Notes under the pieces: generated by a model | The model's input: only the letters and a program-made list of their open reading frames with translations | Databases searched by the model: none | Told to the model about the DNA's origin: nothing | Shown: positions 5,180 to 20,898 of the stretch, piece after piece | Numbering within the stretch: the stretch's first letter is position 1 | Layout of the letters: each line of letters opens with the position of its first letter | Assembly: GCA_963766075.1 (NCBI GenBank) | Contig: CAVYAN010000007.1 | Span: forward strand, 1 to 22,556 | Direction of reading: 5' to 3' | Length of the DNA: 22,556 nt | Origin: an uncultured cyanobacterium | GTDB taxonomy: Bacteria > Cyanobacteriota > Cyanobacteriia > Leptolyngbyales > Leptolyngbyaceae | Position numbers and translations under genes: made by a program

Positions 5180-6373
5180 TTAGGTGAGATCAGGGGGGCG
5201 GAGATTAGTAAAGTTGGTTGCACCGTAATGTCGATCAATCGTTTTGGCACTGGTTCCGGTCCATCTGCCAATAGCCGTACTATTAATATGAGCCTCTACA
5301 CACAAGCTAATGAACGTGTGCCTGCACTGATAACTCTTTCGATATGGAATATTACTCTTCTCCAAGATAGACTGCCACGCTCGGTTTGCAAAATTATGTT
5401 GGTCAAGGAATTTGCCCTTGGGGCTCGGAAATAAAAATCCTTCAGGGTTGTAAATTTCTTCTCTTAAATCATCCAAAATAGCTCTAACTTCTGGTGTCAT
5501 GGGAAAATCTCGCTTACGCTGAGTCTTTAAACCCTCTTTCAGAACTAGACCCTTTTCAGATACAACCACCGACTGCCTAAACTTGACCACAGATTCACCA
5601 ATGTGCTTCCACCGCAACGCAATCGCCTCAGAAGGGCGAGCACCCGTGAAGAAAAGAAATTTTACGTAGTTCGTGTAGTGCTTGTAGTAGCGATCGCTGG
5701 CAAAGCTGGCGATGATCAGGTCACGCTCAGCCTTGGTGAACGGATTGACATCCTCATCTTCAGATACCCCTTTGGGAACTCTGAGCTTCATGGTCAGAAA
5801 AGGATTGTCTTGAGTGAGCCCCTCTTCCACGGCCCAGTTACAGCATGCTTTTAACTGAGTCAAGCACCGCTTAGCGGCATCCGGCGTAAGAGTTGCCAAT
5901 AGATGGTCACGGATAAGCGTGGCATCTTCCAACGATTGGCTCGGAAACCTGCCAATATGATTTTTGTGTTTGGTGAAGTCCTTTGCGTAGGTACTGGGAC
6001 TGACTTGAGGTTTCTTAAACTGCGAATATTTCTCCCAAAGTTCATCCAGGGAGGGTTGGGATTTCGGGGGGGCATTGGGGGAAATTGGGGGAATGGACGA
6101 AACGGTGGTGAGGGAAGCCTTAGGCTTGTATTTGCTGAGGCTCAAATCAACCTCACCGTAGTCAATATCGCGCTGGATCTCCCGCACCTTGTCTCCGACC
6201 CGTTGGCGATTGAGAGGGGTGTCCTCGTACCCCGTGGAAATATAGAAACGCTTCCGCTGGATTTCGCCATTTTCTTCCACGGGATATGAAAAGACGATTT
6301 GCAAGCGCCCCTTTGTGCTTTTGAATTGGACTGAACCCTTACTGGCCTTGGATTGCTTTTCCTTGGAGTACAT
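5180..6373 (-). CDS. Tyrosine recombinase/integrase with N-terminal arm-DNA-binding domain
   Basis: 397 aa with 'FFTGARPSEAIALRW', 'LKTQRKR', 'YQCRHTF' and 'IDRHY'. The N-terminus 'GRLQIVFSY..RKRFYISTG' is typical of cyanobacterial integrases. It lies next to a tRNA fragment. Confidence 0.93.
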   Translation of the reverse strand: MYSKEKQSKASKGSVQFKSTKGRLQIVFSYPVEENGEIQRKRFYISTGYEDTPLNRQRVGDKVREIQRDIDYGEVDLSLSKYKPKASLTTVSSIPPISPNAPPKSQPSLDELWEKYSQFKKPQVSPSTYAKDFTKHKNHIGRFPSQSLEDATLIRDHLLATLTPDAAKRCLTQLKACCNWAVEEGLTQDNPFLTMKLRVPKGVSEDEDVNPFTKAERDLIIASFASDRYYKHYTNYVKFLFFTGARPSEAIALRWKHIGESVVKFRQSVVVSEKGLVLKEGLKTQRKRDFPMTPEVRAILDDLREEIYNPEGFLFPSPKGKFLDQHNFANRAWQSILEKSNIPYRKSYQCRHTFISLCVEAHINSTAIGRWTGTSAKTIDRHYGATNFTNLRPPDLT

Positions 6374-6434
6374 AATTTTGCTCGGGGGTAAAGAGTGTTT
6401 GTACTATTCGGATTGTAGCGAGTTGGCTCAAAAA

Positions 6435-6480
6435 ATTCCCCCAATTTTCCCCCAATCTGTCCCCCAAACTGACCCAAACC
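6435..6480. repeat. CCCC(C)AA repeats, candidate integrase arm-type sites
   Basis: Three CCCC(C)AA motifs at ~11-12 bp spacing lie between the integrase start and the att core. Opposite-strand TTGGGGGAA repeats occur inside int at ~6075-6093. Confidence 0.4.
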
Positions 6481-6572
6481 GGTCTGAAAATAGAACAGGG
6501 GTAGGGTTGGCTCATCCATTAAAAAAGCTCCGAACCCTTTACAGGTGGAGCCTTTTACTTGATTTCATTGAA

Positions 6573-6622
6573 TGCCAGGAACCGGACTTGAACCGGTGAC
6601 ACGAGGATTTTCAGTCCTCTGC
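6573..6622 (-). other. 3' 50 nt of tRNA-Phe(GAA), att core
   Basis: Minus strand GCAGAGGACTGAAAATCCTCGTGTCACCGGTTCAAGTCCGGTTCCTGGCA gives the anticodon arm, T arm and 3' acceptor strand. The 5' acceptor strand and D loop are absent. Confidence 0.9.
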
Positions 6623-6920
6623 CGTAAAACACCTGTACCCATACATCTCTAGCTGAAAAGCTTATGGGCAAAGGCTTTATTGTTTGAACAGATGTACCAA
6701 AATATGCCGAAAAACACTGAGAGATTGTGCAAATTTCGGGAAGAATCTGGGAAGCCCATCACTGGGAGTGTGAATCAATATTTTTCTCTAGGCATCAATA
6801 ACCCCATCAGAGTCCACATTCTTACCTAGAAAACTGCAAGCATGTCAGCAAACACTTTTTTAACGGCTGAAACCTTTACACATCAACGGGTTTACCCTGC
6901 TTGCATTTGTGCAAGCAGGC

Positions 6921-6988
6921 TGTCAGCAAATCAGAAAAATGCAAGCAAATCAGAAAAATGTCAGCAAATCGGGTGAATGCAAGCAAAA
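6921..6988. repeat. Four tandem 19-bp-period repeats, TG(TC/CA)AGCAAA core
   Basis: Units start at 6921, 6940, 6959 and 6978. Extra cores lie at 6835-6852 and 6910, with an inverted one at 6898. Confidence 0.8.
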
Positions 6989-7069
6989 CTCCCTCCAATC
7001 AACACAACACAACATCAATCAGCGCGTATATCATAGAAGAGGCGTTAGCACAATAGCTTAGAGGAAAAA

Positions 7070-7807
7070 ATGGAAATCAACGAAGAACAGCAAACCGACA
7101 ACAACGACCTGAATGTTCAATTGGCAGCGGCGTTAGAGGAAATCGACACGCTCAAAGAAGCCAACCTTTTAGGTGAGAAGCAATTGAGCAAGGCAGTGGC
7201 ACAGATTGAAGCCCTGACGGCTGACACCACCAAAGACGTTAAAGACATCCGTGATGCATACGAATCCCGCTTCCAGGGGCTTACAGCGGCGATCACGAAG
7301 CAAGCCTTTATCAAAGAGCTGGGTGGTGATGCAGAAGTGGCTGATTTTCTCTATGAGAAATACAAGAATCGCTTAGACATGGACACCGATGATTTCTCCA
7401 TCACAGTCCTTTCAGACAAAGGAAAACCTGAGTATGTGCGCGGTGGCCCTAAAACCGTTGCTGACTTTGCCGGGGAAGTAAAAGCGACTCACAAAGGCTT
7501 CTTCCAAGCCCCGGACACCGCAGAGGGAGGCGTGCGCTACATCACCCAGCAGCAAGCCCTCGATGCTTCCTTTCTGCGGCGTGAGGGTATCACGCTTGAT
7601 GCCATGGGTGATGGCAGGGTAGTGATTGATCGGGATGGGTCAAAGACGGGTGCGATCGCAACCAAGCAAGCCCCGACATCTAAGGGAGCGTTGAAAATCA
7701 CCCGCGCTGAAATGCGGAATACCCGCGCCTGGTGTCATCAAAACGGAGTCCCAGCCACCGAATTCTTGAGCAAACTCAACGCCAACGAAATCGCGATTGT
7801 CGATTAA
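7070..7807 (+). CDS. Phage capsid scaffolding-like coiled-coil protein
   Basis: RBS AGAGGA precedes an acidic coiled-coil N-half. 'VLSDKGKP..KTVADFAGEVKATHKGFFQAP..GG' resembles scaffold C-terminal regions. It lies upstream of a terS-like gene. Confidence 0.5.
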   Translation: MEINEEQQTDNNDLNVQLAAALEEIDTLKEANLLGEKQLSKAVAQIEALTADTTKDVKDIRDAYESRFQGLTAAITKQAFIKELGGDAEVADFLYEKYKNRLDMDTDDFSITVLSDKGKPEYVRGGPKTVADFAGEVKATHKGFFQAPDTAEGGVRYITQQQALDASFLRREGITLDAMGDGRVVIDRDGSKTGAIATKQAPTSKGALKITRAEMRNTRAWCHQNGVPATEFLSKLNANEIAIVD

Positions 7808-7848
7808 CCACAAGTTTGTGTGCGTGCTGACGACCTAATAAGTGTCAC

Positions 7849-7895
7849 AAACCCCTAAGCGCTGTCTCGCACACGCAGTGTTCAGGGGGTTTCTT
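7849..7895 (+). terminator. Stem-loop between the scaffold-like and terS-like genes
   Basis: AAACCCCT-AAGCGCTG...CAGTGTT-C-AGGGGGTTT followed by CTTCT. Confidence 0.4.
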
Positions 7896-7917
7896 CTATA
7901 GGATTCAAAAAAAAGCC

Positions 7918-8403
7918 ATGACATTGACTGTGAAGCAAGCTCAGGCGGTGAGCTTGCGCCTACAAGGGTTGAAAGGTTCAGAGATCGCCAAACAACTCAA
8001 GGTAAAAGATGCCACGGTCTACAGGTGGTTCACACTGCCTGAAGTGAAGGCGGCGATCGCAGCGTTAGGGGCAGAGCTTGAGGCGGATTCGGTAGACTCG
8101 CTTAAGGAACTTCGATCCAAGTCTCAACAGCTTGTGCAGCAAGCGCTTACTGTCTTGGGGACAGAACTGAAGACAGCGGAAAGCCTTCCTGAAAAGCTGC
8201 TGGTGACGACTGAAATCTTAAGCTACTACCGAGCGCTTCACCCGGTCCAGAATTCAGCGGCGGCAATCACGGCACAGGCCAAAGTTGAGGACGGTGCGCC
8301 GACTGCCAGCGTAGTTGTCTACATTCCCGACAACGGGCGCGGCGATAGTGCCATTCCAAAGCGGACCCTAGTGGATGCCGGAAACGGTGTTGACTTTTAT
8401 TGA
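7918..8403 (+). CDS. HTH protein, terminase small subunit-like
   Basis: N-terminal HTH 'GSEIAKQLKVKDATVYRW', a helical middle region and a C-terminal 'VVVYIPDNGR' strand motif seen in TerS proteins. Confidence 0.6.
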   Translation: MTLTVKQAQAVSLRLQGLKGSEIAKQLKVKDATVYRWFTLPEVKAAIAALGAELEADSVDSLKELRSKSQQLVQQALTVLGTELKTAESLPEKLLVTTEILSYYRALHPVQNSAAAITAQAKVEDGAPTASVVVYIPDNGRGDSAIPKRTLVDAGNGVDFY

Positions 8404-8521
8404 GCTTCTCCCGAAAGCGAAAAAAGATACTAAATTAATGCTAATTTTTGCCCCAAAAAAACGACTAAACCCTGTACCAAATGACACAGAGACAATACGT
8501 AGTAAATCAAGAGGTTCTGGA

Positions 8522-8944
8522 ATGAAATTTTTCAAAGTATTTGCGTTCGCACTTCTGGTACTGATGATTGGTTTTGGGAGTCCAGCTTGGGCGGCCACCG
8601 ATCAAAGTGATTTTTTAAGCGGTTCTACCGTGTACCTCCCATATTCTGGTGCGATTCCCGTCAGTTCCGGTAAATTTGAATGCTTGCGAATCGACAGTAC
8701 ATCGGGTGTATTGGCGCTGAATTTACAGACGTATAACTTGGGGATAAATTCTGTCAGTGGAGATGCAATAAGTCTCAAAATAAAAAGCGTTTTTGCACGA
8801 GCGCTTTTGCTGACTTCGGGTAGATATTGGATAGGAGGTAAACCATTGGCGCACAACGTTTATGGGTTTCAAAAATATGTGGACGTTATTCTTCCTAGTG
8901 GCACGGCTGTTGCTGTGGCTGCGGTTAAGGGACAATCAGAATAG
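8522..8944 (+). CDS. Secreted hypothetical protein (140 aa; start reassigned from 8375)
   Basis: RBS AGAGG then a classic signal peptide MKFFKVFAFALLVLMIGFGSPAWA. Confidence 0.7.
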   Translation: MKFFKVFAFALLVLMIGFGSPAWAATDQSDFLSGSTVYLPYSGAIPVSSGKFECLRIDSTSGVLALNLQTYNLGINSVSGDAISLKIKSVFARALLLTSGRYWIGGKPLAHNVYGFQKYVDVILPSGTAVAVAAVKGQSE

Positions 8945-9127
8945 TAAACGGCGGATATACGTCGCTCGTAGATAGAAACGGTTATGGCGTAGTGACAACG
9001 AATTGCCCTGCCGAGAAAAAACCCGACGAAAATCCACAGAGAGCACCAATCCCCGTCGTACACCTTTATCCCAAAGGAGTATTCATCCCTAACTTGATTA
9101 GATTTTGACAAGATTCTCAGTGATTAG

Positions 9128-9757
9128 CTAAGTCGGGTGAAATTCAAAAGCGGGTTGTTGGACCTGGCTAATAGTCCACACTAGATCCTCCCGACTTAGT
9201 TTTTTGAAATCGAACATCAACAGAAGCCGCCCAAACGGAAGGAAAACAAAACCTTCGGAACAATAATTGACACAATGCACGGCCTTCAGTTCCATGTCGC
9301 AGAGGTCACATAGGCTAGATTGCAGTATGACAAAAGTCGCACGATATTCTAGGTTTATCCCTCTCCTGAAAGCAGCCTCATGACTATCAGTAAGCGCGTC
9401 GTAGACCTCACGTTTCTTTTTCAAAATCTGCCACAAAGGACTTTCAGCGTGTTCAAGTGGCGTCCCTGAAAAGTCAACGGCATCCCCTACGAGAAATTCG
9501 CACCACAACATCCACAAAGATTCGGTCATCCCCGCTAACTGCAATTCTCCAACGCGGGCCTCGTGCCGATTGAAAGGTGGGAAGCACAACCCGTCACCCA
9601 TAAGTGTCCACACAGCAAAATCAACTGACGGATTGAACAAATCCAGTGGTGTGAAAGGAACAGCCCCTTTTCTGGTAGATTTCCTAACCCACACTCCACG
9701 GTCTTTGTCCCACGGGAACCCTTCCGATTCAAAACCACTGGCAATTTTTATGCTCAT
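9128..9757 (-). CDS. Hypothetical protein
   Basis: 209-aa ORF with no recognised motif. Confidence 0.55.
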   Translation of the reverse strand: MSIKIASGFESEGFPWDKDRGVWVRKSTRKGAVPFTPLDLFNPSVDFAVWTLMGDGLCFPPFNRHEARVGELQLAGMTESLWMLWCEFLVGDAVDFSGTPLEHAESPLWQILKKKREVYDALTDSHEAAFRRGINLEYRATFVILQSSLCDLCDMELKAVHCVNYCSEGFVFLPFGRLLLMFDFKKLSREDLVWTISQVQQPAFEFHPT

Positions 9758-9826
9758 CTTTTTGGAGTCCAGGAATGAAATTTCTGAAGGTTTTCGCGTT
9801 CTTGATCGTTTTCTGCATAGTCACTA

Positions 9827-10219
9827 TCAATCAGTACTGATAGATCGACCAGGGTTCAAATTACTACCAAATCTGCCAATAATCCGCTTTTGTCCTGAGT
9901 AGAACATCTTCTCTTCTGCTATAGCTGCTTCGAGTGTGGGCTTAGGCAACGCTAAACCACTCCTTTTCTTAAATCCGAAAGACCAGTAACCATCGTACCG
10001 ATAAAAAACATTGGGAATCGGGTGCTCAAATGAAAATGCAGTACCCATCACTGAAAATCCAGACACCATGGATTCGTCATAAACATCCCCTAAATGAGCA
10101 ATTACCGCTGCTTTGAATTCTTCAAAAGTCACACGGCGGTAATTGCTCATTTCGGGATTGACTATTCTGCGTCGCGGTTCTTGGTCAGTCATTTTGCTTT
10201 TGAAGGGAGAACACCGCAA
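9827..10219 (-). CDS. Hypothetical protein (start probably ATG ~10192)
   Basis: ORF co-oriented with 9128..9757, no recognised motif. Confidence 0.5.
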   Translation of the reverse strand: MRCSPFKSKMTDQEPRRRIVNPEMSNYRRVTFEEFKAAVIAHLGDVYDESMVSGFSVMGTAFSFEHPIPNVFYRYDGYWSFGFKKRSGLALPKPTLEAAIAEEKMFYSGQKRIIGRFGSNLNPGRSISTD

Positions 10220-10755
10220 GTCTAACCTTATCCTTTCTCACCCACGAAATCTTCACACGCCACAACAGAACCCCAGAACCCTCATCAGTAAAGGATTCTG
10301 GGGTTTGTTCTCTGTGGTGCGCTAAAGGGGTGTTTTGCTTCAGGTAGAATCCCTCAGACACCATGTCTACCGTGCGTTACAGGGCATTCTCAGAGGGGTG
10401 TTTCTGGGTATTTCCTGGAATGCGTCTTAGTAGGAAGCATCAGTATTAATTCATCCAAAAAAAAAGGTTGTCAAAAGTTGTATCAAGTTGAGACTGACTG
10501 TCTCAAAAACACCCTGGACTAGAAACGGACTACAAAGCAAAAAACCACTCAACTGGCACACAGGTGAAACCTAATAGGCTCATGAGACTGAGATCCGCAA
10601 GATTCAGAGAGCAAAATGCTTGAAACCCTTCACCTGAAAGCTTTTTAGCTTAGTCTTAGTCCGTGGGTCTTCTGCCATCTTAGGCAGAAGTGCAAGTAAG
10701 GTTTCAAACTGCCTCGCCATAAGGGTTTGAGATTTTATTTTGCCTTTTTCTAGTC

Positions 10756-11151
10756 CATTGGTGCAAGCCCAGGTGACAACATAGCGAAAATCCCGCCACT
10801 CTCAGCAGAGAATGATGGGATTTTTGGTCCATCGGTTTGCTCTAAAGTGAAATGCAAATCAGCATCTCTTGCGCCAAAGTGAATCATTCGTACCAAAAAC
10901 CAATGTATAAGCTAAACCTATGCCATAGTCGGACCGGTCTCGCTTATACTTCGTCACCTGGTCTTGCCCCAAGCCTTGAAACCTATACAGGGCAATGGTT
11001 TCAGTTTTGGTCAAAGCACTTAGTGCAAAACCCAAAATCCAAAACCTATACAGGGCAATGGTTTCAGGCATTGGTGCAAGCCCAGGTGACAACATAGCGA
11101 AAATCCCACCACTCTCAGTAGAGAATGATGGGATTTTTGGTACGAATGATT
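10756..11151. repeat. Structured non-coding repeat locus (73-bp direct repeat, inverted related unit, duplicated palindrome)
   Basis: 10756-10828 and 11069-11141 differ at 2 positions. 10882-10899 is the exact reverse complement of 11134-11151. AAACCTATACAGGGCAATGGTTTCAG occurs at 10979 and 11042. Confidence 0.9.
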
Positions 11152-11164
11152 GAATCGGTTCGGT

Positions 11165-11192
11165 ATGTTCCCGTAATCAGTTACGGGAACAT
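11165..11192. terminator. Perfect 12-bp hairpin at the end of the minus-strand operon
   Basis: ATGTTCCCGTAA-TCAG-TTACGGGAACAT overlaps the stop codon of the HicA-like gene. Confidence 0.55.
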
Positions 11193-11357
11193 GATGGCAC
11201 GGCGGATAGCTGCGATCGCAGAACTGGACAACGGGCAATGCTCACTGATCACCAGACGGTCTGGACCGCGTTGCCAGATAGCGTGAGAGGTTTGCCCTTT
11301 CCTGATCCGTTCCCACCCAGCGCGGCGTAGTTCTCGCAAAGCTTGCCTGAGCTTCAT
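11181..11357 (-). CDS. HicA-family toxin-like protein (58 aa, not in the ORF track)
   Basis: MKLRQALRELRRAGWERIRKGQTSHAIWQRGPDRLVISEHCPLSSSAIAAIRRAIMFP fits the HicA pattern L..GW..R..SH..W. It has an ATGA overlap with the upstream gene. Confidence 0.7.
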   Translation of the reverse strand: MKLRQALRELRRAGWERIRKGQTSHAIWQRGPDRLVISEHCPLSSSAIAAIRRAIMFP

Positions 11358-11626
11358 AGGTATTCATCCTCTCTGCGAATGGGGCAACATTCCCACCCAT
11401 CCAAAGACAACCGCTTACCCAAGCTGCATGTGATGCCCCGGTAAGGTTTGCCTTGCTTGTTCAGTTGCTTGGTGAGGATGGCTCTAGCCTGCTCTTCACT
11501 GCCTGCCTCAACGTACCGCAGGGCATTAGTCCGATCCTGGTAGCGGGCATACATCGCATAGAGCCAGCGATCAGGTTGTGCGCTTGGGGACGGTGCGATC
11601 AATTCAAGTTGGTGGTAACGCTTCAT
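11354..11626 (-). CDS. Hypothetical protein
   Basis: 90 aa, with 4-nt start/stop overlaps with both neighbours. Confidence 0.65.
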   Translation of the reverse strand: MKRYHQLELIAPSPSAQPDRWLYAMYARYQDRTNALRYVEAGSEEQARAILTKQLNKQGKPYRGITCSLGKRLSLDGWECCPIRREDEYL

Positions 11627-11943
11627 GGGTCACTCCCCGGCACTTCCCCGATGAACTCCACATCCAACCTGGAAATTTGCCTAGGCTCATGTTTACGGTG
11701 CCGATGGGCATAGTGGTAGCGCTGAGCAACCCGCCATAGAAACCCCAGGTATTCAACCGAATCACCAACCATAGGCGGCTCGTAAAACGACATTAAGAAG
11801 ATGCCTTCTAGCTTCTCTACTTCAGCTTTAGGCAGGTTGTCACGGACTGAATCGGGTAGCTCAAAGTCAACCATCCACTGTGAGGGGTTCTTGCTCACAG
11901 TTACCGGGGTTTCTTGTGCAATTCCTAAGAAGAATTTAGCCAT
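11623..11943 (-). CDS. Hypothetical protein
   Basis: 106 aa, ATG start, stop overlaps the next start. Confidence 0.65.
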   Translation of the reverse strand: MAKFFLGIAQETPVTVSKNPSQWMVDFELPDSVRDNLPKAEVEKLEGIFLMSFYEPPMVGDSVEYLGFLWRVAQRYHYAHRHRKHEPRQISRLDVEFIGEVPGSDP

Positions 11944-12132: not shown

Positions 12133-12135
12133 TTT

Positions 12136-13808
12136 TTACCCCTCTACCCGGAAGGTATCGGCATCAATTCGTGTTAGGCATTTCTGAGCAACCGCCACGG
12201 CTAAAACTTGAGTCAGCTTGTCGCGTTGCCTACAACCATTGCGCTTGCCCCAGTTGCCTTTGATTTGTTCAAAGGTTAGCTCTGTGCCTGCTTTCTCCTG
12301 AATCCAACTCAGGAAATTAGCAACGAGCAAAGCATCCTCTGAGCCGTGGTTTTTTAGGTGTGCGATAACCTTTTCGATGCGGCTATTAGGTACTGGGTTT
12401 TGCGCGGTCGATGTCACTTGCGGGTGGTCAACTTCAGCGCTTTTGTAGTCGGTTACACCCGCCACTTCCCGAACTTTTTCAACCTTAGCCGCAACACATT
12501 TCCTGCCATCCCAGTCAGGCAGGGACAGCCCATCGAGGCTGTAAAAACGGCCTTCGATTTGGACGGTGCGATCGCAGATTTCGGCGGTTGCTGGGTCCAA
12601 GGTTGCCCCTTGAAAGTTGGTGCTTAGTTGCTTGAACAGCCCTGAATCAAACACTAGGCGTTGCCCGTTCCACTCCGACTGAGAGGCCGGGTGGATGAAC
12701 ACATGGGTCAGACTGCCTGTTTTGCAAAAGCTCTTGCCGTGCTGGACCATGTTTGCCGCGATGAACTCAGGCCCGATAGCCCAGACAGACTTACCCCGCT
12801 TCACCCCGGTGCTGTTGCATTGACTCGACAGGGAAGCGATCACCGCATTCAAAGGTTCCAACAAACCCCGGTGCATGTTGGAGATTGCGGCCTGCGCGGG
12901 TGCCTCATCGACAACCAAGATCGCCCCGGTCTGTGCCCAAAAGTCCCGGACCATTTTGATGGATGCTTCAATCACCTGCTTCGCCGTCGGACTGTCCAGC
13001 GACCCCAGGTCGAACCGGATTGATGCCGTGGCATGTTGCCAGTACTCTGCATCTTCGTCTCTGCCCTCCGATGTCCGGGTGTGGCTGAGATTGAGGTGAA
13101 AAGTCTTGATGCCCTTTGAGGCCAGGTAGCGGCTTGCGATCGCAGCTAAGAAACTCTTACCTGTGCGTTGCCCGCCAAAGATGAGCCGATTCTGGTATGG
13201 GTTAGCTAGAAGCACACTCACAGGCCCGTCTTGTGGGGCGATCACTTCAGAGCGGGTGTCATCACCGTAAACCTCCATACCCACACCCACGGCTTGCACC
13301 GGAATTGCCCCTAACTGGGTTTGGATACCCACGGCGGGCGCGACGGCGGGCGCTGTTTTGCCAGACGGGGAAAGGGCAAGCTGCGGGGCATCACCCATCA
13401 CATAGGCGCGGTAAGCCGTTTCCAGTGCGGCGGCAACTTTGCCCAGTGGTTCGCCCTGGTCAACCTTCGTCCACCAGATCCAAGATTTCTGGGTGATCGG
13501 TGAGGAAATCGGCTTCAGCTTGGCGATCGCGCTGGGTGATCCTGTAATTCCAAGCTTGCAATGCCTGCCAACCTGCCAGCACGATCAGGGGTGCCAGGAG
13601 TGGCAAAGTAAAGCCAGACAAGGCCACAATCCCCGCCGCACTGGCAATGCCTACCGCAGCAGTGGTTAGAGGCGATCAGGGTATCTTTGCCCGTCTCAGC
13701 TTCATCCAGGTGGATGATTCTGAGCGCTTCATGGGCATCAGGGATGAAGTCTTGCCGTAGCATTTCGGACGTGATGAGCGTGGCGGGGTTGGGTTCAAAG
13801 CTTCGCAT
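12136..13808 (-). CDS. Membrane-anchored P-loop ATPase (FtsK/TraB/coupling-protein-like), ~556 aa after repairing two frameshifts
   Basis: Walker A 'IFGGQRTGKS' and Walker B 'ILVVDE'. RBS GAGAGG precedes the ATG at 13808. Shifts near 13670 and 13468 reveal the hydrophobic segment 'LTTAAVGIASAAGIVALSGFTLPLLAPLIVLAGW'. A small C-terminal domain follows a linker. Confidence 0.7.
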
Positions 13809-13864: not shown

Positions 13865-14609
13865 TTAGTTGTTGCTGGAATTGTGGTCAGGCACAGTGAC
13901 GGAAGTACGGCGCACAGAGGCTTCTAGGGACTGAATGAACTCTAGTTCATCGCGGGATAGCAGCTTTTCCGCACAAGTGTTCGTAAGGCGTATCCCGACC
14001 TCTACCCCAAACATGCCGACTAGAGCCAGCAGCACCCCTGACCAGCTCACCCCAGTTGCACCCAGGATGCCACCGCCAACAATCAGCACGAAGAATTCCA
14101 GGGCATAGCAGACCCACCGAATCGCCTCAAAGGTCATCTCCTGAGACTTCTCGCGGTTCCGATAGCGCTTGAACTTGTTCCGAGCTACCGGGTTCAGTTC
14201 GTGATTCACCACGGGGATTTCTACTGGCTTGCGTTGGAGTCTGACTAGTCCGGCGATGTTTGCCTTCAAATTCAGATTGTCGAACGCGGGCATAATTTCT
14301 AGAGCTTGGATCACACCCCAACTGAGCAACCCAGCGGCAAAGGAACCCGTTGCAGCAGACCAGGACGTGACATTTATAATCCCGGCAAACACGGTGAATG
14401 AGCCACAGAGTAGCGTTGCCCCACGCCAACTAACCACCCACTGAAAGACCTCTTTAAGACCGATCAGGAGGTCATCAAAGTCAATCCGGCCATTGTGATT
14501 CTTGTCTACCACATCAGCCCACGGGCGCTTGGGGTCAGTCTTTGCGGTTTCCTTTGCCTTGGCGATCATTGGTGCGTTGGGTGGAACGGGAATTAGTTTG
14601 AAAAGCCAT
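13865..14609 (-). CDS. Multi-pass membrane protein (frameshift near 14542)
   Basis: RBS AGGAAA then MAFQTNSRS..., joined to 'KTDPKRPW' by removing one A. It has about four hydrophobic segments and an EF-hand-like 'DKNHNGRIDFDD'. Confidence 0.7.
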
Positions 14610-14630
14610 GGTGTATTTCCTATTGAGGGT

Positions 14631-15028
14631 TTACGGTGGAACGGGCGATGTGCTGGGGATTGGTGCGGAATCCACGGGTGTGGAAGCGGTAGGTGCAAAC
14701 CTGGAAGCGAGAATCCGATTCAGCACTTCAGGCGGGGCAGAGCGGATGTAATGACCTTGGCATCGGCGGTCACTTCAGCGGTGTTGCCCTGGTCATCACA
14801 GACCAGAGTGCCAGGGGTCAAAGGGATTCCGGGTTTGCTATAGGCGCGATACCAAGGGTTAATCGTGCCTGTCATCCTTTGGCAAGTGGCGGCGCGTTGT
14901 TGGGCGATTGTGGCGGCGCTGGATACCTGATTCCAGGCGACGATGCGGGGATTTGCGCACATAGACAAGGCTTGCACCGAGAACACGGCCCCAAGGCCCA
15001 ACAGGCAGCGCTGTGAGGTTCTGTTCAT
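14631..15028 (-). CDS. Exported or membrane-anchored hypothetical protein (frameshift near 14750)
   Basis: N-terminal hydrophobic segment and 'GTLVCDDQGNTAEV'. Adding one base extends it to a Pro/Ser-rich tail that ends just before the next RBS. Confidence 0.6.
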
Positions 15029-15411
15029 GCCGCTACCTCTGGCAATTCGTCCCGAAACCCTTCGTAGACTGAATCCTCATCAAGGGAATAGATGCCTTCC
15101 AGGATTTGATGTCCCAGTGCGATCGCTAACTGGATAGCGGGCAATGGTTCTGCAAAGTCTAGAAATTCCTCGATCATCTTGACCGCATCGCATTCGTGAA
15201 AATCGAATGGGTCGGTCATCTCGATAAATTCGTAAAAGCTGCTGCGGTCAACTTCTTCCACCGACGCGCAGTAGTTCACCCAATCCCCGATAACCATGAT
15301 TAGCTGGCTTTTCTCGGATAGGGGCAAGCTCTCTAGGCGCGGCCCGTAGGCGTTGGCGGCTTCTGCAAAATCAGCGTCGTAGGTGGATAGCAGACTGTTT
15401 TTCGTTACCAT
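15025..15411 (-). CDS. Highly acidic hypothetical protein
   Basis: 128 aa with 27 D/E versus 6 K/R by manual count. RBS GAGG; stop overlaps the next start. Confidence 0.7.
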   Translation of the reverse strand: MVTKNSLLSTYDADFAEAANAYGPRLESLPLSEKSQLIMVIGDWVNYCASVEEVDRSSFYEFIEMTDPFDFHECDAVKMIEEFLDFAEPLPAIQLAIALGHQILEGIYSLDEDSVYEGFRDELPEVAA

Positions 15412-15420
15412 TGGAATACC

Positions 15421-15735
15421 TCAAAGTGTTGATAGTTCGATGTTCTGGGGTGCTAAGCCTGCCTGTGATTGGTAGTCGGGGCAGGCTTTTGCATTGATGC
15501 ACGGGAATGGTCTAGAGATGGAAAACAAGTCACGGGCAACCTCAAAACCCTCTAGCTCCAACCATTCGATGACCCAATCGGTTTCAGTGCCAGACAGCGG
15601 CCCGTCTACTTGTGGATCGAACAAATCGGCGTGACTGGCAATCCGCCATAGGGCATCGGCGCGGCCACTGGGGCTGATGGAGCGGTTGTAGTGGGTTACT
15701 TGCCGTTGGACGTAATCGGGGGTGTAAGCCTTCAT
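15421..15735 (-). CDS. Hypothetical protein
   Basis: 104 aa, RBS AGGAG. Confidence 0.65.
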   Translation of the reverse strand: MKAYTPDYVQRQVTHYNRSISPSGRADALWRIASHADLFDPQVDGPLSGTETDWVIEWLELEGFEVARDLFSISRPFPCINAKACPDYQSQAGLAPQNIELSTL

Positions 15736-15759
15736 TGGGTTCTCCTGTGGTTAACGAAT

Positions 15760-16039
15760 CTAAAGTCCTTCAATCGGCGGTCTGGGCTTCTTGGCAGTAC
15801 TGGGCAGTGCTGTGACACTAACGGGCGCTATCGAGTCATTTGGAACAGGTTTAGGCGGGTTAGTGTCACTAACGGGCGCTATCGGGATGTTTTGTCCTGT
15901 TAGTAAACTGGATAGCGTCACTACCGTGCCGATTGATGAGGTATTCAAGTAAAAACGAGGGTTCAAGGTTTGCTTGGTCGGAGAGGGCATAGAGGCGTTG
16001 CCGTGCCCTCTCGCTTAGCCTGATTCTGGGTTCTGCCAT
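15760..16039 (-). CDS. ParR-like ribbon-helix-helix protein (frameshift near 15910; start not in the ORF track)
   Basis: The ATG overlaps the ParM stop (TGATG) and reads MAEPRIRLSERARQRLYALSDQANLEPSFLLEYLINRHG. Removing one C joins it to a Pro-rich tail ending 'KKPRPPIEGL'. As written it stops at 15869 (56 aa). Confidence 0.65.
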
Positions 16040-17022
16040 CACAACCCCATGCCTAAAACGGTGATGTCCTGCGGTTGGGGCACAACCTTAAACCGTCCTT
16101 TGGTGCGGTGCTCCATGGACTCAGCCAGAGAGGCAGAGCCACCCACTAGAAGCACTTCACCCAGATCCGACAGGTAGGGTTGCCATGCGGCAGTAGCACT
16201 AGTGCGGATGTCATCGATCCAGGTATCGCGGCATGAGGCAAAGTGAGTCACAAAGCTGGAACCGTTACGCCCAATCTTGAACGAACCGTTTTCGATGCCG
16301 TCCATGATTTGAGATAGGTCAGCACTGATGCCCGTTTCCTTGAGCAACCGTGCCTGAATCGCTTGAGCCAGCTTGTTTGTACCGGGCAAGGTGATAGAGG
16401 CATCGCGCAGATTCACACCCTCAGCAGAGTAGAGCCGACCGCTAGAAGTCCCACCGCCAAAGTCGATCACCCCGTTGACGGCATCGTCAGCCCACTGGTA
16501 AAGCCCATTGGTAACCCCATACAGGTAAGCGGCGGTGCTTTCCTCCACTAGAACCACATGGGCGATAGTGACAATCAGGGCTTGACCGTTGCGGGTGTAT
16601 TCGTGGGTGCCGGTCAGTGCTTTGCCTGCTGCGATCGCATCTGGGTTGCGGGTATCGGGTACGGCAATCTTCAGGGTTTCTACTCGGAATGCCGAATGCC
16701 CAAAAGGTGCTTCCAGCGCGGCGAAAACGGACTCAGACAGCATCGATAGCTTGCCTTTGTCGAATGCACTGCGGTGCCCTGATTGAGCTTTAGCGGCTTG
16801 CCCAATGGCGTAGGTTTGGCCGTCACGCTCAATGATGACGGTATCGGCACCGGGCGCGGGTACATCTTCCCAGCTTGTATCGAAATGGCGGATCACATGG
16901 GGCATCCGTATCAAGTCCCCATTCACTGAAATGTACTCTAGGTAGCGGTTCCCGGCGTTTAGCAAGACTTCAGGGCGAATCTTGGCGGTCCAAGAAAGTG
17001 GTTTTTGAAGTGGGGTCATCAT
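16039..17022 (-). CDS. parM: ParM/StbA-family actin-like ATPase
   Basis: Actin-fold motifs 'LNAGNR', 'YAIGQAA', 'VEESTAAY', 'VIDFGGGTS' and 'LLVGGSA'. Confidence 0.85.
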   Translation of the reverse strand: MMTPLQKPLSWTAKIRPEVLLNAGNRYLEYISVNGDLIRMPHVIRHFDTSWEDVPAPGADTVIIERDGQTYAIGQAAKAQSGHRSAFDKGKLSMLSESVFAALEAPFGHSAFRVETLKIAVPDTRNPDAIAAGKALTGTHEYTRNGQALIVTIAHVVLVEESTAAYLYGVTNGLYQWADDAVNGVIDFGGGTSSGRLYSAEGVNLRDASITLPGTNKLAQAIQARLLKETGISADLSQIMDGIENGSFKIGRNGSSFVTHFASCRDTWIDDIRTSATAAWQPYLSDLGEVLLVGGSASLAESMEHRTKGRFKVVPQPQDITVLGMGL

Positions 17023-17027
17023 TGGTT

Positions 17028-17344
17028 TTAGGTAAATAAAGGTGCTGTGGGCAGTTTTGAGCCATACCTAGGGCGTGTGAAATTAGGCGGGAGCAGATAA
17101 ATACGTAGTTTTGCTAGAGCCGATTGCCCGCGCTTGTATTGAAGTGAGTCGTAGGGGTTGTAATCCAGTAATTGGGTTCCGACATACTCTTGATCAGTCG
17201 TGACGATCGTGGTCCCAATGTATTCAGACCCGAATTCTGTCGGCAAGTTGAATCCGGTCAATATAAATCCACCGTTCAATTCCTGGATGAATTGATCATC
17301 TGGCAGCGTGCGGCAGAGGACTGGACTTGAGAAATCGTGATCAT
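17028..17344 (-). CDS. Hypothetical protein (frameshift near 17318)
   Basis: ATG at 17344 after AAAGG; MITISQVQS joins 'LCRTLPDDQFIQELNGGF' with one added base. Confidence 0.5.
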
Positions 17345-17404
17345 GGTTTTGACCTTTGGATAGAGGTTTACAGTGGGCAGTTTTTAGCTTGAGGGCGTGC
17401 GAAA

Positions 17405-17758
17405 TTAGGCGACGACCTTGGGAGAATTCTTAATCCGACTGTCCAGTTCATCAAAATCAATCAGTGATTCAGCAGAGCGGGGTAGTCTGAGCACTGGGAT
17501 TAGGGGTAAGCACAGCCCGTAGCCAGCCAGCCAAGGAATCAGGATGGCATTGCAATAGTTCCGGGTAGCTCTGGCAGCGTCGATTACGGAGCCACAGAAG
17601 GAGCAGAACGCGGTCCAGAACCAGCGAATGTCTTGCAACATCCCGGTTACCCGAAAATCAATCTCGAAATCGTTGCCTTCGGACATGCAAACCGTAACCA
17701 AATCAACATGCTTAGCGATCCAGTATCCAAACGAAGCGGCGAGGAAGAGTGAAAGCAT
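17405..17758 (-). CDS. Hydrophobic hypothetical protein, first gene of the leftward operon
   Basis: 117 aa, RBS GGAG, N-terminal hydrophobic stretch. Confidence 0.6.
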   Translation of the reverse strand: MLSLFLAASFGYWIAKHVDLVTVCMSEGNDFEIDFRVTGMLQDIRWFWTAFCSFCGSVIDAARATRNYCNAILIPWLAGYGLCLPLIPVLRLPRSAESLIDFDELDSRIKNSPKVVA

Positions 17759-17959
17759 TGGTGTAGTCTCCAGGGGTAAAAGGTTTAAGGGTGGGGCTTT
17801 TTTAGGTGGCCCCGGTCTGGTTGGAAAAGTTGTTAACCCGGTTCAACCCTGCCGGGAAGCCTTTTACGGGGCTTGGGCGGAACCTTTGGTTTGCCGGGGT
17901 TCAGTCCGGGAGGCGGTTGTCTGTCCCGCTTGAATCTAATGTAATTCAATAGCAATACG

Positions 17960-18087
17960 ATTGCAATACTATTGATATTCAATCATCTTATATATCTGTT
18001 TTGACTTAAACCCTTTCAGGAAAGCAGTTTCAAGCAAAAGCAATACTATTGATTCATAAGTTTTAACTATATCAATAGTATTGCAAT
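17960..18087. promoter_or_regulatory. Divergent promoter region with three operator-like repeats
   Basis: GCAATACTATTGAT occurs at 17963 and 18040 and inverted at 18071-18084. The outer pair is a perfect 19-bp inverted repeat (17960-17978 / 18069-18087). The region is AT-rich. Confidence 0.75.
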
Positions 18088-18137
18088 TGATAAGAGAATG
18101 CAGTTACTATCGAGTTCAGATGTAAATTAATCAGGTA

Positions 18138-18380
18138 ATGACTATGTGTGACGCAACGATGCCCCGAAGTACCCGTGCTTTTCGATTAGACGATCGCTTG
18201 TTGGAAGCGCTGGATCGGCTTGCAAAAAAGGGGAATATATCAGCCAATAAATACGTTGAAAATCTTCTGATGAGTCATGCTAAGCAATTGGGTGAAATCC
18301 CAATGGATACAGAGCCGTTAGGGGATCCCCGTGGTGGCAAGCGTGACGGATCCGGGCGGAAGTCTAAGCCTGAGGAATAA
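18138..18380 (+). CDS. CopG/Arc-like ribbon-helix-helix regulator
   Basis: 'TRAFRLDDRLLEALDRLAKKGNISANKYVENLL' fits the RHH pattern. The gene is divergent from the operon. Confidence 0.75.
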   Translation: MTMCDATMPRSTRAFRLDDRLLEALDRLAKKGNISANKYVENLLMSHAKQLGEIPMDTEPLGDPRGGKRDGSGRKSKPEE

Positions 18381-18441
18381 GCCGATGCGATCGCAAAATA
18401 TCGTAGTCTGATCGGACTCATGCCCTCTCTGATACCCGTAT

Positions 18442-18672
18442 ATGAAATTTGAAGAGTACAAACCGGGTTTGACTGTTCTGCAAGTTGGGCTAGGCCGTCC
18501 ACTATCCAAAGTGATCGGAGTAACGATTTCACCCGAACCGTTTCGGGAGTTAGGCGATCCGTTCAATTGGAAGTGTTTGGTCAAACTGGACAAAGGTGGG
18601 ACCAAAATCCTCCCACTTGGGCGATTAAAATTGCACCAACCTGTAATCGTTAACGACTGCCAAAACCCCTGA
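18442..18672 (+). CDS. Small hypothetical protein (possibly beta-barrel)
   Basis: 76-aa ORF followed by a terminator. Confidence 0.5.
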   Translation: MKFEEYKPGLTVLQVGLGRPLSKVIGVTISPEPFRELGDPFNWKCLVKLDKGGTKILPLGRLKLHQPVIVNDCQNP

Positions 18673-18703
18673 TAAAAGTGACTTTCACCGTATTTAGACA
18701 GAC

Positions 18704-18742
18704 AAAAAAGCCCCTGGAAAACTCGTAATTCCAGGGGCTTTG
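18704..18742. terminator. Bidirectional intrinsic terminator
   Basis: 13-bp perfect inverted repeat AAAGCCCCTGGAA / TTCCAGGGGCTTT between convergent genes. Confidence 0.8.
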
Positions 18743-18761
18743 TCTATTTCAGGACAGGGTG

Positions 18762-19332
18762 TTAGGCGACCTCTTCAAACGGCTCATACTGTGGATTCCC
18801 CTGGTAGCCGGGAAAATCGTATTGCCACTTTTCAATCAGCATCCGTTGCCCGCTGCCAGGGTGTTTGACGGCGAACAGGGAACGGTCCAGGGCTTGATGC
18901 AAGCACGGTTGGACCAAGGGGACTATTTTGCCGTCTTCAAAGTTGCACGGTTTCCACTCGAATCCACAAGTGGTGTCCCAGATCCAGCATTGCGGGTTGT
19001 TTTGGGGCTGATTGGCCAAAAGCACAATCGGAAGTTTGCCCCCGGAGCGGGAAATATCGGGCATCGTCGAAATGCTCTTCATGCCGTCCAATCGTGCTCA
19101 GTTCGATCCCGTAGGTTTTCTTGTTCAGGGCGATCGCAAAATCCGGTGCCCAATAGCCGCTAGGGTCTGGCACGAACAAGGGATTTTGTGCAGCGTTCGG
19201 ATTGGCTCTGAGGTGGTCCATGTTCCGAGGGTGGATCATGGAAATGCCTTGAGCGGTGAAAAAGTCTTGCCAATCTACCCGGTAGCGCGTCCGGTTTTCC
19301 TCTCCAACATAACGGTCTGGCAATGTGAGCAT
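18762..19332 (-). CDS. PD-(D/E)xK-like nuclease domain protein (frameshift near 19090)
   Basis: Motif 'YWAPDFAIALNKKTYGIELS'. Two overlapping ORFs join into ~189 aa (571 nt = 3n+1). RBS AGGAG. Confidence 0.5.
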
Positions 19333-19372
19333 AGGTTTTTCTCTCCTTGAATTTGGGTCCAGACTACGCTAT

Positions 19373-19948
19373 TCACGAGGGTTTCGATAAAATCTGCCTA
19401 CAAAAATCTTTGGCTGACATCTGGACCCAGTTACGCCGATCCTGTGCGACCGGAAACCAGGGTAATCCCTCCGGGTCAAGCTTGGAAGTCATGGCCGCAA
19501 CCCGTTCAGCACTGGCAAGGTCACCCCGAAAAAGTTTGCCGTCACGGCCCCCAACTTGGCAGAGCCGTGCATTTACGGTGCGATCGCCTTTCAGCCTGTC
19601 TATCAGGGCATAAATCGGGATGGCATCCACAGTAGGGACAACCGGGGCAGAATCTTTGAAAAAAGTTTGGGCACCTTTACGCACTTTTCGCCCGGATGTG
19701 TCCAACGGGACCGGGGTGGGTATAGGCTCTAACCGCTCCAATATCGCCTTGATTTGGCTCTGGAGCGTTCCCAAGACATGCGGCACGGATGTTCGCCCAG
19801 ACTTCACCAGATACCGATCAGACGCGGCTTGTAGCAGCAGTTCTGACAAGGAAACACCTAGACTTTGGGCAACCTCGGATAGTGCTTTTTTAGCCGCGAT
19901 CGGTACGTAAATTTTGACTATGGCAGTCGAGTTTTTCTGAATCGGCAT
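19373..19948 (-). CDS. RHH/MobC-like DNA-binding protein, copy A (191 aa)
   Basis: N-terminal 'IVKIYVPIAAKKALSEVAQSLGVSLSELLLQAA' and C-terminal 'TSKLDPEGLPW'. Confidence 0.65.
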   Translation of the reverse strand: MPIQKNSTAIVKIYVPIAAKKALSEVAQSLGVSLSELLLQAASDRYLVKSGRTSVPHVLGTLQSQIKAILERLEPIPTPVPLDTSGRKVRKGAQTFFKDSAPVVPTVDAIPIYALIDRLKGDRTVNARLCQVGGRDGKLFRGDLASAERVAAMTSKLDPEGLPWFPVAQDRRNWVQMSAKDFCRQILSKPS

Positions 19949-20898
19949 GAGGTTCTGGTGGGTCTACCAGAAGTCCCCCAAGGAAGGCAAACCAGTCCAA
20001 AAACAGTCCACCCGTTAGTGGCCCCACCGAATCCACATCGTCTCAATTTCTCAGACTCCTGAGGCCCAAACTGTAGAGACCCAAATGGGCTTTAAGGGAA
20101 CCTGAATTAACCACCCAGTGGATATTAAAGTTTAATCGGGATGACAGGATTCGAACCTGCGGCATCCTGCTCCCAAAGCAGGCGCGCTACCAAGCTGCGC
20201 TACATCCCGTTGCAGAAATTGCTCATTAAAGATAACACACCTTGCCCCCACCCGGGCAGAAAGCCGAAGAAATTGAAACGCTGTGGATTCGGTGGGTCCA
20301 CTAAAGAGTGGACTGTTTTTGGACTGGTTCGCCTTCCTTGGGGCACTTCTGGTAGACCCACCAGAACCTCATGCCGATTCAGAAAAACTCGACTGCCATA
20401 GTTAAAATTTACGTACCGATCGCGGCTAAAAAAGCACTATCCGAGGTTGCCCAAAGTCTAGATGTGTCCCTGTCAGAACTGCTGCTACAAGCCGCGTCTG
20501 ATCGGTATCTGGTGAAGTCTGGGCGAACATCCGTGCCGCATGTCTTGGGAACTCTCCAAAGCCAAATCAAGGCGATATTGGAGCGATTAGAGCCTATGCC
20601 CACCTCGGCCCCGTTGGACACATCCGGGCGAAAAGTGCGAAAAGGTGCCCAAACTTTTTTCAAAGATTCCACCCCGGTTGCCCCTACTGTGAATGCCATC
20701 TCGATTTATGCCCTGATAGACAGGCTGAAAGGCGATCGCACCGTAAATGCACGGCTCTGCCAAGTTGGGGGCCGTGACGGCAAACTTTTTCGGGGTGACC
20801 TCGCCAGTGCTGAACGGGTTGCGACCATGACTTCCAAGCTTGACCCGGAGGGATTACCCTGGTTTCCGGTCGCACAGGATCGGCGTAACTGGGTCCAG
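19421..20898. repeat. ~630-bp inverted duplication (19421-20051 / ~20268-20898) flanking tRNA-Pro
   Basis: The two gene copies and ~100 bp upstream of each are reverse complements with scattered substitutions. Confidence 0.9.
20136..20209 (-). tRNA. trnP: tRNA-Pro(TGG)
   Basis: CGGGATGTAGCGCAGCTTGGTAGCGCGCCTGCTTTGGGAGCAGGATGCCGCAGGTTCGAATCCTGTCATCCCGA forms a full cloverleaf with anticodon loop TTTGGGA. Confidence 0.97.

Follow-up and report, generated by a model that had tools for sequence, protein, structure and literature searches.

We analyzed a 22,556-nucleotide stretch of DNA (contig CAVYAN010000007.1 of GenBank assembly GCA_963766075.1, positions 1 to 22,556 of the forward strand), which we call the window, from an uncultured cyanobacterium of the family Leptolyngbyaceae. 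The mobile-element region that it contains is, with good probability, a damaged, replicase-less, rearranged and composite member of a family of cyanobacterial elements that integrate at tRNA genes and that join packaging genes like those of phage-inducible chromosomal islands (PICIs) to transfer genes like those of the integrative and conjugative elements of actinomycetes (AICEs). Comparison of its members shows the family plan to be an integrase (with xis), a primase-helicase replicase and a ribbon-helix-helix (RHH) regulator, followed by an operon made up of ParM and ParR, small genes, membrane proteins and an ATPase of FtsK/HerA type; the far end often carries a small terminase (TerS) gene and sometimes scaffold, large terminase (TerL) or tape-measure-like genes, and neither capsid nor portal genes were found. 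An earlier note had described positions 5180 to 20051 as one element with integrase, scaffold-like, TerS-like, ParM/ParR, membrane ATPase, HicA-like and RHH genes. Every one of these genes is confirmed, but the region ends at an attachment (att) site in a tRNA-Pro gene and is a composite island. The features that carry our interpretation are as follows (C6 is a second contig of the assembly):

5180–6373, minus strand: tyrosine integrase (tRNA-Phe type), flanking the Phe core on its P' side
6571–6622, minus: tRNA-Phe 3' core (tRNA nt 24–73 plus 2 nt), junction of the integrase arm and the scaffold/TerS arm
7070–7807, plus: head-scaffold-like protein (phrog_206, 5e-4; moderate support)
7918–8403, plus: small terminase-like protein, phBC6A51/SF6-type helix-turn-helix (HTH) plus long helices
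10755–11184, no strand: non-coding; contains direct repeats of 73 nt and 26 nt and has 87% identity to the arm next to att on C6
11623–11943, minus: conserved small gene downstream of the ATPase (homologs after the ATPase in G004, G015, G409 and L089)
12136–13808, minus: FtsK/HerA-superfamily ATPase, frame broken twice (near 13665 and 13465)
13865–14698, then 14720, 15025 and 15421 (to 15735), minus: two-helix membrane protein and three small conserved genes of the ParMR-ATPase operon
15760–16042, minus: RHH adaptor resembling ParR, with a single frame break near 15895
16039–17022, minus: actin-like ParM of the mobile clade (phrog_691, 1e-13)
19373–19948, minus: RHH (NikA/MobC-like) protein of an att-adjacent family (homologs at att sites)
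20050–20209, minus: putative attL at tRNA-Pro(tgg), with the intact tRNA (20136–20209) and 86 bp of host DNA
20268–20898, plus: inverted copy, truncated and 96% identical, of the end of the element, lying beyond tRNA-Pro

Relatives are designated here by genome (G) and locus (L), and contigs by C numbers; the window is the whole of contig C7 in an assembly of 126 contigs that is 85% complete. Relatives of the window's ParM occur in 20 of the 401 genomes of the class (this one included), at 80 metagenome loci kept out of 105, on two viral (IMG/VR) contigs and on 19 plasmids, all of these from filamentous genera of cyanobacteria; the closest named ones are Phormidesmis and Leptolyngbyales records. 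Among 76 clustered loci of at least 4.5 kb, a set that includes the window and some redundant loci, 71 have ParM, 53 a ParR family, 37 the ATPase and 35 the family of the small gene at 15025. ATPase profiles matched 55 of the 90 genomes of the host's taxonomic family and 98 of the 401 in the class, often several times per genome, with a patchy spread (24 of 39 in family f1, 0 of 39 in f2 and 0 of 23 in f4). When seven ATPase matches were picked from long chromosomal contigs, six of them proved to be inside elements bounded by tRNA repeats. In all, 14 relatives are complete, spanning 14–43 kb between direct repeats of 40–224 bp of tRNA ends:

G015: tRNA-Leu, 18.5 kb
G004: tRNA-Pro, 18.6 kb
G318: tRNA-Lys, 25.1 kb
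G326: tRNA-Val, 17.0 kb
G247a: tRNA-Arg, 28.8 kb
G409: tRNA-Val, 14.2 kb
G369a: tRNA-His, 18.9 kb
G369b: tRNA-Phe, 15.1 kb
G369c: tRNA-Ala, 16.7 kb
G203: tRNA-Phe, 24.6 kb
G247b: tRNA-Pro, 32.5 kb
G355b: tRNA-Lys, 29.7 kb
G369d: tRNA-Pro, 43 kb
G211: tRNA-Val, 21.7 kb

G355a, which has integrase, replicase, ParM and ATPase genes, was left out of this set as it has no att repeat. A primase/helicase replicase (of the DUF3854/D5, Prim-Pol/VapE, DUF3987 or CyRepA1 kinds) is present in all 14 elements, as is the ATPase, counting an FtsK with a PF01580 domain in its slot in G247a. ParM is present in 13 (two divergent ones were identified by phrog_691) and an integrase in 12, those of G203 and G355b being called by N-terminal resemblance only. 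The two elements without an integrase, G326 and G409, have a homolog of the 19373 gene beside the att site. Eight of the 14 carry a TerS-like gene; three of the 14 came from a TerS search, and the count is 5 of 11 among elements found via ParM or the ATPase alone. The combination of integrase, TerS-like, ParMR and membrane ATPase genes, whose synteny the earlier note had proposed to check, recurs in complete att-bounded elements of other cyanobacteria. TerS genes also accompany ParMR-ATPase modules in G255, G286, G006 and G053, at loci without visible att sites.

Within the operon, the window's ParM also matches NF010498 (9e-8, below that family's cut-off) and 3js6 (7e-7). It is 71% identical to the ParM of the complete, TerS-bearing G004 element, its sister (support 99/96) in a tree of 33 rows of selected ParMs, where it groups with element-borne proteins and apart from the host's chromosomal paralog on contig C117, to which it is only 28% identical. 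That paralog is part of a ParM/ParR pair among host genes (C117:66000–67400; L017:11086–12392), a context in which the pair is probably CorMR, and the window's ParM is outside the CorMR clade. In its N-terminal half the window's ParR matches the G355 ParR (1e-16), and its C-terminal motif is shared with the G004 ParR but in the next frame. The window thus has an actin-like ParM followed by an RHH ParR, as in ParMRC systems, with the parR frame broken, and none of the 20 largest repeat families forms an iteron array, as a possible parC, immediately upstream of parM. Two mostly plasmid-borne clades of cyanobacterial ParMR with this gene order have been reported; the available text of that paper does not discuss a membrane/ATPase operon, integrases or terminases, and the words 'integrase' and 'prophage' have no occurrence in it (10.1101/2025.06.27.661541). 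The ParM list in its supplement could include our loci.

The ATPase consists of an N-terminal membrane segment, a motor (intact Walker B, and Walker A at position 76 counted in the in-frame part) and a C-terminal winged-helix-like domain, and 29 of 32 full-length family members have a hydrophobic segment within the first 200 residues. Profiles for HerA (7e-7), TcpA (4e-6) and FtsK/SpoIIIE match it, whereas PF01580 is unmatched in most members; the FtsK in the same slot of G247a matches PF01580 at 2e-15. A structural model (predicted local distance difference test 72, 35 sequences) has a RecA-like motor at residues 60–290 and a confident C-terminal alpha/beta domain. Its best structural matches are VirB4 (Z 13.1, root-mean-square deviation 3.8, 203 residues aligned), TcpA of the pCW3 Tcp system (PDB 6o1x, Z 12.8) and HerA (Z 12.6); Atlas places it with HerA/DUF87 clusters (0.93), and Foldseek returned generic RecA/F1 folds. 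Profiles and modeled fold agree in assigning it to the FtsK/HerA superfamily of DNA translocases. The plasmid pCW3 also carries ParMRC, and uses a VirB4-type type IV secretion system and a relaxase, neither of which was found in the window. A HerA-type defense system has no support: only 1 of 19 proteins, from a relative, gave a match to PADLOC defense profiles, and a weak one (mad8, 4e-5).

At the other end of the family plan, the window's TerS-like protein matches phrog_2538 (3e-6; PHROG matches are weak across the family), and the top structural matches of its model are the phBC6A51 and SF6 small terminases (2ao9, Z 7.2; 2cmp, Z 7.1); searches against PDB sequences gave matches only at E 0.09–0.4. 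A member of the same TerS family is located directly before TerL in a G349 prophage, with a portal gene nearby. Of the genes expected of a PICI, the window thus has the small terminase, judged by the profile match and by this homolog. TerS profiles matched 16 of the 401 class genomes and 8 of the 90 family genomes, the window's genome included. In the class, 6 of the 15 non-self matches are near ParM and/or the ATPase, five are in primase-bearing PICI-like elements without them, one is in a prophage, one is in an ambiguous context and two are alone; in the taxonomic family, five of seven non-self matches are within ~10 kb of the ATPase and the other two are on 4- and 12-kb contigs. The eight TerS-like genes of the complete elements comprise five of the window type, one of Sf6 type (PF20901, 3e-7), one directly before TerL (G318) and one homolog of the latter (3e-28); the family of the G318 type is labelled 'Rnase E' in PHROGs, and our call there comes from its context. 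The occurrence of at least three different TerS types in one slot points to selection for function. We did not count three short genes with an HGGxSTG-like motif (G326, G247a, G247b) or the HTH gene at the end of G369a, which have no terminase match.

The scaffold-like gene adjoins TerS in G004, G015, G255 and G442. Its relative P0014 matches phrog_206 at 1e-5, and Atlas places the window's protein with Uroviricota clusters (0.93) and DUF6651 (0.92). A word-index search retrieved only the protein itself, the seven matches of a profile search were the three input proteins, one true relative and three repeat-protein artefacts, and there was no match in phage records; no gene resembling a major capsid protein was found beside it in the window. 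Small PICI-like elements without ParMR or the ATPase are present at L148 (G194), L154 (G035), L155 (G023), L156 (G338) and L160 (G032), with a primase, the same TerS family and mostly a recombinase. Two of them are att-bounded (G194, 8.8 kb at tRNA-Tyr; G035, 10.7 kb at tRNA-Val).

The composite build of the window copy is apparent from its att sites. The intact tRNA-Pro(tgg) gene at 20136–20209 was overlooked in the earlier note. A 147-bp sequence (20050–20196) is repeated at 99% identity on contig C6 (3669–3815), directly after host genes, the adjoining one being EamA-like. Past this repeat, the C6 arm has in common with the window a 41-bp motif (19996–20036 in the window, C6:3910–3950), a scaffold-like gene and, at 87% identity, the non-coding region of 430 bp. 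We infer that the window contains attL(Pro) and C6 its partner attR(Pro), and on this reading of the repeats the boundary at 20051 is set by the tRNA-Pro att site and not by the Phe core. The tRNA-Phe core that the earlier note took for the att site of the element is present, as the 3' 50 nt only (6573–6622, tRNA nt 24–73), but it is an internal junction. In the assembly, which is 85% complete, ARAGORN detected no intact tRNA-Phe gene.

The circle predicted to form on excision of the G211 element has the same geometry as the surroundings of the Phe core. In G211 and other complete members the integrase is at one end and TerS at the opposite end, so excision would set them back to back across attP; the order in the window matches that arrangement, and the Phe junction is therefore of attP type, inside an island at tRNA-Pro. 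The integrase (PF00589 1e-8, Arm-DNA-bind_2, phrog_1 4e-47) is 85% identical in amino acid sequence to one that in G030 immediately follows an intact tRNA-Phe gene and whose element there runs leftwards for 9.3 kb, away from the scaffold side, and the same integrase arm is next to intact tRNA-Phe in G001 and G013. A single element at tRNA-Phe spanning 5180–20051 is rejected by this direction together with the right end at att(Pro). The part from integrase through Phe core and scaffold to TerS probably derives from a second, Phe-targeting family member, and the ParMR-ATPase half ends at attL(Pro), as in the integrase-less G326 and G409. The window thus has the integrase expected of a PICI, but it is doubtful whether it serves the ParMR half. 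The attP-type junction could have arisen by tandem integration, as in G203, where a second element follows the first, or when a Phe-type circle recombined with a Pro element that lacked an integrase; the 430-bp region, of which C6 has a copy in direct orientation, may have been the site. We regard 10755–11184 as a candidate cis-site and possible recombination point.

Several further observations concern the att sites. A 631-bp inverted duplication flanks tRNA-Pro, and its copies show 25 differences, with synonymous changes in 9 codons and non-synonymous changes in 9; the same placement of an inverted copy upstream of a tRNA is seen in G254, and the copy at 20268–20898 is probably from a second related element. 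Imperfect short palindromes and repeats with a 19-nt period lie beside att sites and within the shared non-coding region (window 6870–6990 and 10979–11067; C6:3818, 4414 and 4477) and are candidate arm or pac sites. The att repeats of L146/L147 (G015) and L056/L057 (G247) copy the 5' half of the tRNA plus 117–179 bp upstream, not the 3' end, and an inverted 5' part of tRNA-Pro lies ~170 bp inside the G004 element (L014:1234–1261). The RHH family with a conserved C-terminal domain, to which 19373–19948 and 20371–20898 belong (also L027:787–1413, L171:19349–19921 and G254:C34:92774–93397), has a tRNA att site next to it in all full-length cases that were examined, among them the att sites of the two integrase-less elements G326 and G409, and tRNA-Val in G254. 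The protein may be a directionality factor or an aid in borrowing an integrase.

By gene content, the family resembles PICIs in integrase, primase and TerS and AICEs in the transfer ATPase, but belongs strictly to neither. PICIs and PICI-like tycheposons, as far as our sources describe them, share tRNA integration, a tyrosine integrase, a primase-helicase, a small terminase, the lack of a capsid operon and a scale of 10–20 kb (10.1101/2022.09.14.508007, 10.1101/2020.12.28.424599). The family differs in its larger size, in the added ParMR-membrane-FtsK/HerA operon, in the tail genes of some members, which the PICI model as given in the first source forbids (10.1101/2022.09.14.508007), and in using RHH proteins instead of AlpA, MerR or Stl regulators, none of which matched in Pfam, PHROGs or NCBIfam at E up to 0.05–0.1. 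Unlike PICIs and all 14 complete relatives, the window copy has no primase-replicase module.

Streptomyces TraB has a membrane anchor, an FtsK-type motor and a C-terminal winged helix. It is described as a single FtsK-like translocase of double-stranded DNA with small hydrophobic Spd helpers, and AICEs such as pSAM2, SLP1 and pMEA, in the accounts available to us, combine one such ATPase and small hydrophobic neighbors with tRNA integration by a tyrosine integrase and their own replicase, mostly lack a relaxase or type IV secretion system, and have filamentous named hosts (PMC2440964, PMC3429521). Integration at tRNA genes with att repeats is likewise found in the 14 relatives, and the window's genome has the att(Pro) pair. 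In contrast to AICEs, whose transfer was called unique to Actinomycetales at the date of review and whose descriptions in these sources include neither ParMR nor TerS (PMC2440964, PMC3429521), the named hosts of the relatives are cyanobacteria, the replicase is a primase-helicase instead of RepSA/RepAM, and the ATPase of most members misses PF01580.

We propose that the excised circle would replicate by its own primase-helicase and could then move by two routes. By the first, for which we see somewhat better than even chances, TerS would mark the circle for packaging into the heads of a helper phage, as in PICIs. By the second, modeled on TraB/Spd and in our estimate an even bet, the membrane-anchored ATPase would bind a cis-site by its C-terminal winged helix and, with no relaxase involved, pump double-stranded DNA into a recipient filament or a neighboring cell, while ParMR would position the circles. 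The full proposal is of a widespread and undescribed dual-route family. Its TraB-like pump, together with ParM, an RHH adaptor and membrane proteins, would carry double-stranded circles from filament to filament or from cell to cell within one, with neither a relaxase nor a type IV secretion system, and an interchangeable small terminase, along with scaffold or tape-measure genes, would let them travel in helper-phage particles as well. This proposal is tentative and on present evidence rather doubtful. That the family joins two known kinds of element is well supported at the level of genes and predicted at the level of mechanism. No description of this combination was found in the literature searched, whose coverage did not extend to most subscription papers and preprint supplements.

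If the dual-route reading is true, conjugation of AICE type would exist outside Actinobacteria and be joined to a phage satellite, with a new role for ParM. DNA movement in filamentous cyanobacteria is poorly known, and this ATPase, found in so many genomes of the host's family and class, is almost without annotation in the libraries; if it is a TraB-like pump, these cyanobacteria would own the relaxase-independent transfer so far described for actinomycetes, and if the terminases work, phage satellites would extend beyond the marine Prochlorococcus and Synechococcus ones. Both claims can be tested directly on those elements that are complete and lie in closed genomes, and these provide new site-specific integrases as well; as a test object, the window copy is a poor choice.

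Several points weigh against our interpretation. The evidence for TerS is moderate: the structural Z of 7.2 is tied with ordinary HTH regulators, there was no match in BFVD under E 0.001, two of the 15 non-self class matches stand alone among host genes, and in 6 of the 14 complete elements no TerS is supported by the libraries. The five best structural matches of the ATPase (VirB4, TcpA, HerA, EccC and the STIV2 packaging ATPase) are effectively tied at Z 13.1–12.1, so the fold cannot tell TraB-like, coupling-protein, VirB4-like, HerA and packaging ATPases apart, and the order of the C-terminal domain fits a winged helix in the secondary structure of the model only. Both plasmids examined that have the full operon carry a relaxase, as does G369d, and the ATPase could therefore be a relaxase coupling protein. 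In the window, the adjacency of C6 and C7 is read from att orientation only, and the integrase/TerS and ParMR parts may come from two family members.

Of the alternatives, we first consider a satellite with a partition operon only, in which phage packaging is the sole route and ParMR and the FtsK-like ATPase segregate circles or clear the septum. The ATPase could have a segregation role as well as a coupling-protein one: ParM is the known segregation actin of plasmids, septal DNA clearance is given as the ancestral role of FtsK in the part of the review consulted (PMC3429521), and no relaxase was found among 50 proteins scanned (G369d has a relaxase and MobC). We nevertheless find this reading rather unlikely. 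An operon with two membrane proteins, and often an M23 peptidase in relatives, has more than segregation needs. The operon is also present on the Nostoc and Calothrix plasmids pNPUN05 and pCAL6303.03, which also carry ParA or ParAB, so ParMR need not be the segregation system there.

A second alternative, which we judge unlikely, makes these elements integrative plasmids with no phage route, the TerS-like gene being a regulator or leftover. It would account for a structural signal confined to the HTH, for the elements without a supported TerS, and for the lack of any match to the G015 TerS-like protein on 72,556 plasmid records although the operon is plasmid-borne. It does not explain why a member of the TerS family directly precedes TerL in a prophage, or why three TerS types, a TerL, and scaffold-like and tape-measure-like genes are found at the same end.

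The elements might also be what deletions left of a temperate phage, or of a phage-plasmid, with ParMR and the ATPase among its genes. Some phage genes are indeed present: G318 has TerS and TerL (L024:1444–3379) without a portal or capsid match; tape-measure-like genes are found in G355b, G203 and G247a, and in G006 and G255 close to related loci; and tail-fibre-like genes accompany the tape measure among G355b, G203 and G006. Related ParMs are on the two IMG/VR contigs, and the att-side RHH gene also flanks an apparent prophage in G254. Yet the att pairs are intact, the operon is found on plasmids, the gene order in G355b (scaffold, tape measure, fibre, TerS) is not that of a deleted head-tail operon, and no capsid or portal match was found among unassigned open reading frames (ORFs) of at least 200 amino acids, other than those crossing locus edges, in 13 of the 14 elements (G211 partly covered, G369d left out). 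PHROG matches to 'minor head' and 'virion structural' proteins in relatives came via M23 or LamG-like domains and are not capsid genes. In the window, none of 28 ORFs matched capsid, portal, TerL or tail profiles in PHROGs, as the earlier note had found, except for a stray tail-chaperone match (E 0.03) to the TerS gene; the genes of a prophage or capsid-forming PICI are thus lacking. The lack of capsid and portal matches in the relatives scanned argues against both refutations that the earlier note had named, a prophage remnant and a chance mosaic, and we regard the remnant hypothesis as quite improbable.

Proteins of 1,400–1,800 amino acids with tape-measure-like sequence and an M23 domain accompany TerS without a capsid at L184:7475–14595 (G355, which also has tail-fibre-like genes), L185:4107–11015 (G203) and L151:9550–15754 (G006). 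These elements are possible satellites with chimeric tails in the style of the PICI-like element PLE, which in the source consulted has its own tape measure protein and no capsid (PMC12987554); the window copy has no tape measure gene, and the likeness is at the level of gene content.

As for replication, the six-frame translations of C7 and C6 had no match to 57 replicase, primase or helicase proteins of relatives, and the place downstream of the RHH gene where G004 has its replicase has none in the window. The earlier note's statement that no replicase is visible therefore holds for this copy but not as a trait of the class, and the copy, going by its sequence, would be unable to replicate by itself. 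The hypothetical proteins at 9128, 9827 and 18762, suggested there as a cryptic Rep, were rejected in that role: they had no match in Pfam, PHROGs, NCBIfam or PADLOC or to the 57 replicases. Four frameshifts, one in parR, two in the ATPase gene and one in the gene at 18762–19332, may be decay or assembly error. All four read as +1. We rejected them as proof of decay, since single +1 frameshifts also occur in an aldo-keto reductase gene (window 2509–3340) and in cysK (C6:154–1138), which suggests insertion-type assembly errors, and the repeat pairs of the assembly have 82 gap openings in 59.5 kb.

These features might also fit a working parasite that borrows Rep and a Pro integrase in trans from sister elements. 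Integrase-less complete relatives exist, the frameshifts may be errors, and the 430-bp region in common with C6 might serve as an origin in cis. We see only a slim chance of this: no complete relative lacks Rep, the Rep-like genes elsewhere in the host genome are fragments, mostly beside insertion sequence (IS) elements, and the load of four frameshifts in ~9 kb of element genes compares with three frameshifted genes among 55 host genes (58 kb). A chance mosaic of modules never found together elsewhere would fit the composite build of the window copy, which combines two att specificities and is flanked by IS elements. It is barely credible, and refuted at the level of the family, since the modules stand together in eight att-bounded elements and in G255, G286, G006 and G053.

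The remaining features of the window are as follows:

8375–8944, plus: hypothetical protein with a hydrophobic N-terminal segment (cargo), likelier start near 8522
9128–9757 and 9827–10219, minus: two hypothetical proteins with no match to Rep or in the four libraries
11181–11357, minus: HicA-like small toxin gene of bacterial toxin-antitoxin type (PF07927 2e-4, phrog_353 1e-4)
17960–18380, plus: 19-bp perfect inverted repeat (halves 17960–17978 and 18069–18087), then an RHH regulator (18138–18380)
18762–19332, minus: one hypothetical gene, split by a frameshift, without a family or Rep match

The protein at 8375–8944 had no family match in the same four libraries. The PF07927 match of the HicA-like protein is below the cut-off, and no HicB partner was recognized. 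The 19-bp inverted repeat lies in a divergent promoter region and is a putative operator; relatives run on from this region into the replicase. Residues 40–90 of the 9128 protein are found again in 10 of 89 family genomes, and one G152 contig has four copies of this 50-residue segment. A promoter and terminator scan gave signal at chance level.

IS elements are present at both ends of C7, and several tRNA-linked integrase or primase remnants, mostly beside IS elements, are found elsewhere in the host genome. A small integrase-like gene (C34:1006–1623) adjoins another IS701 copy, and a second, distant ATPase of the family is located among phage- or plasmid-like genes (C116:10715–12160). At the end of C6 (6711–7160; L016) there is a 132-bp inverted repeat of short palindromic units that is origin-like.

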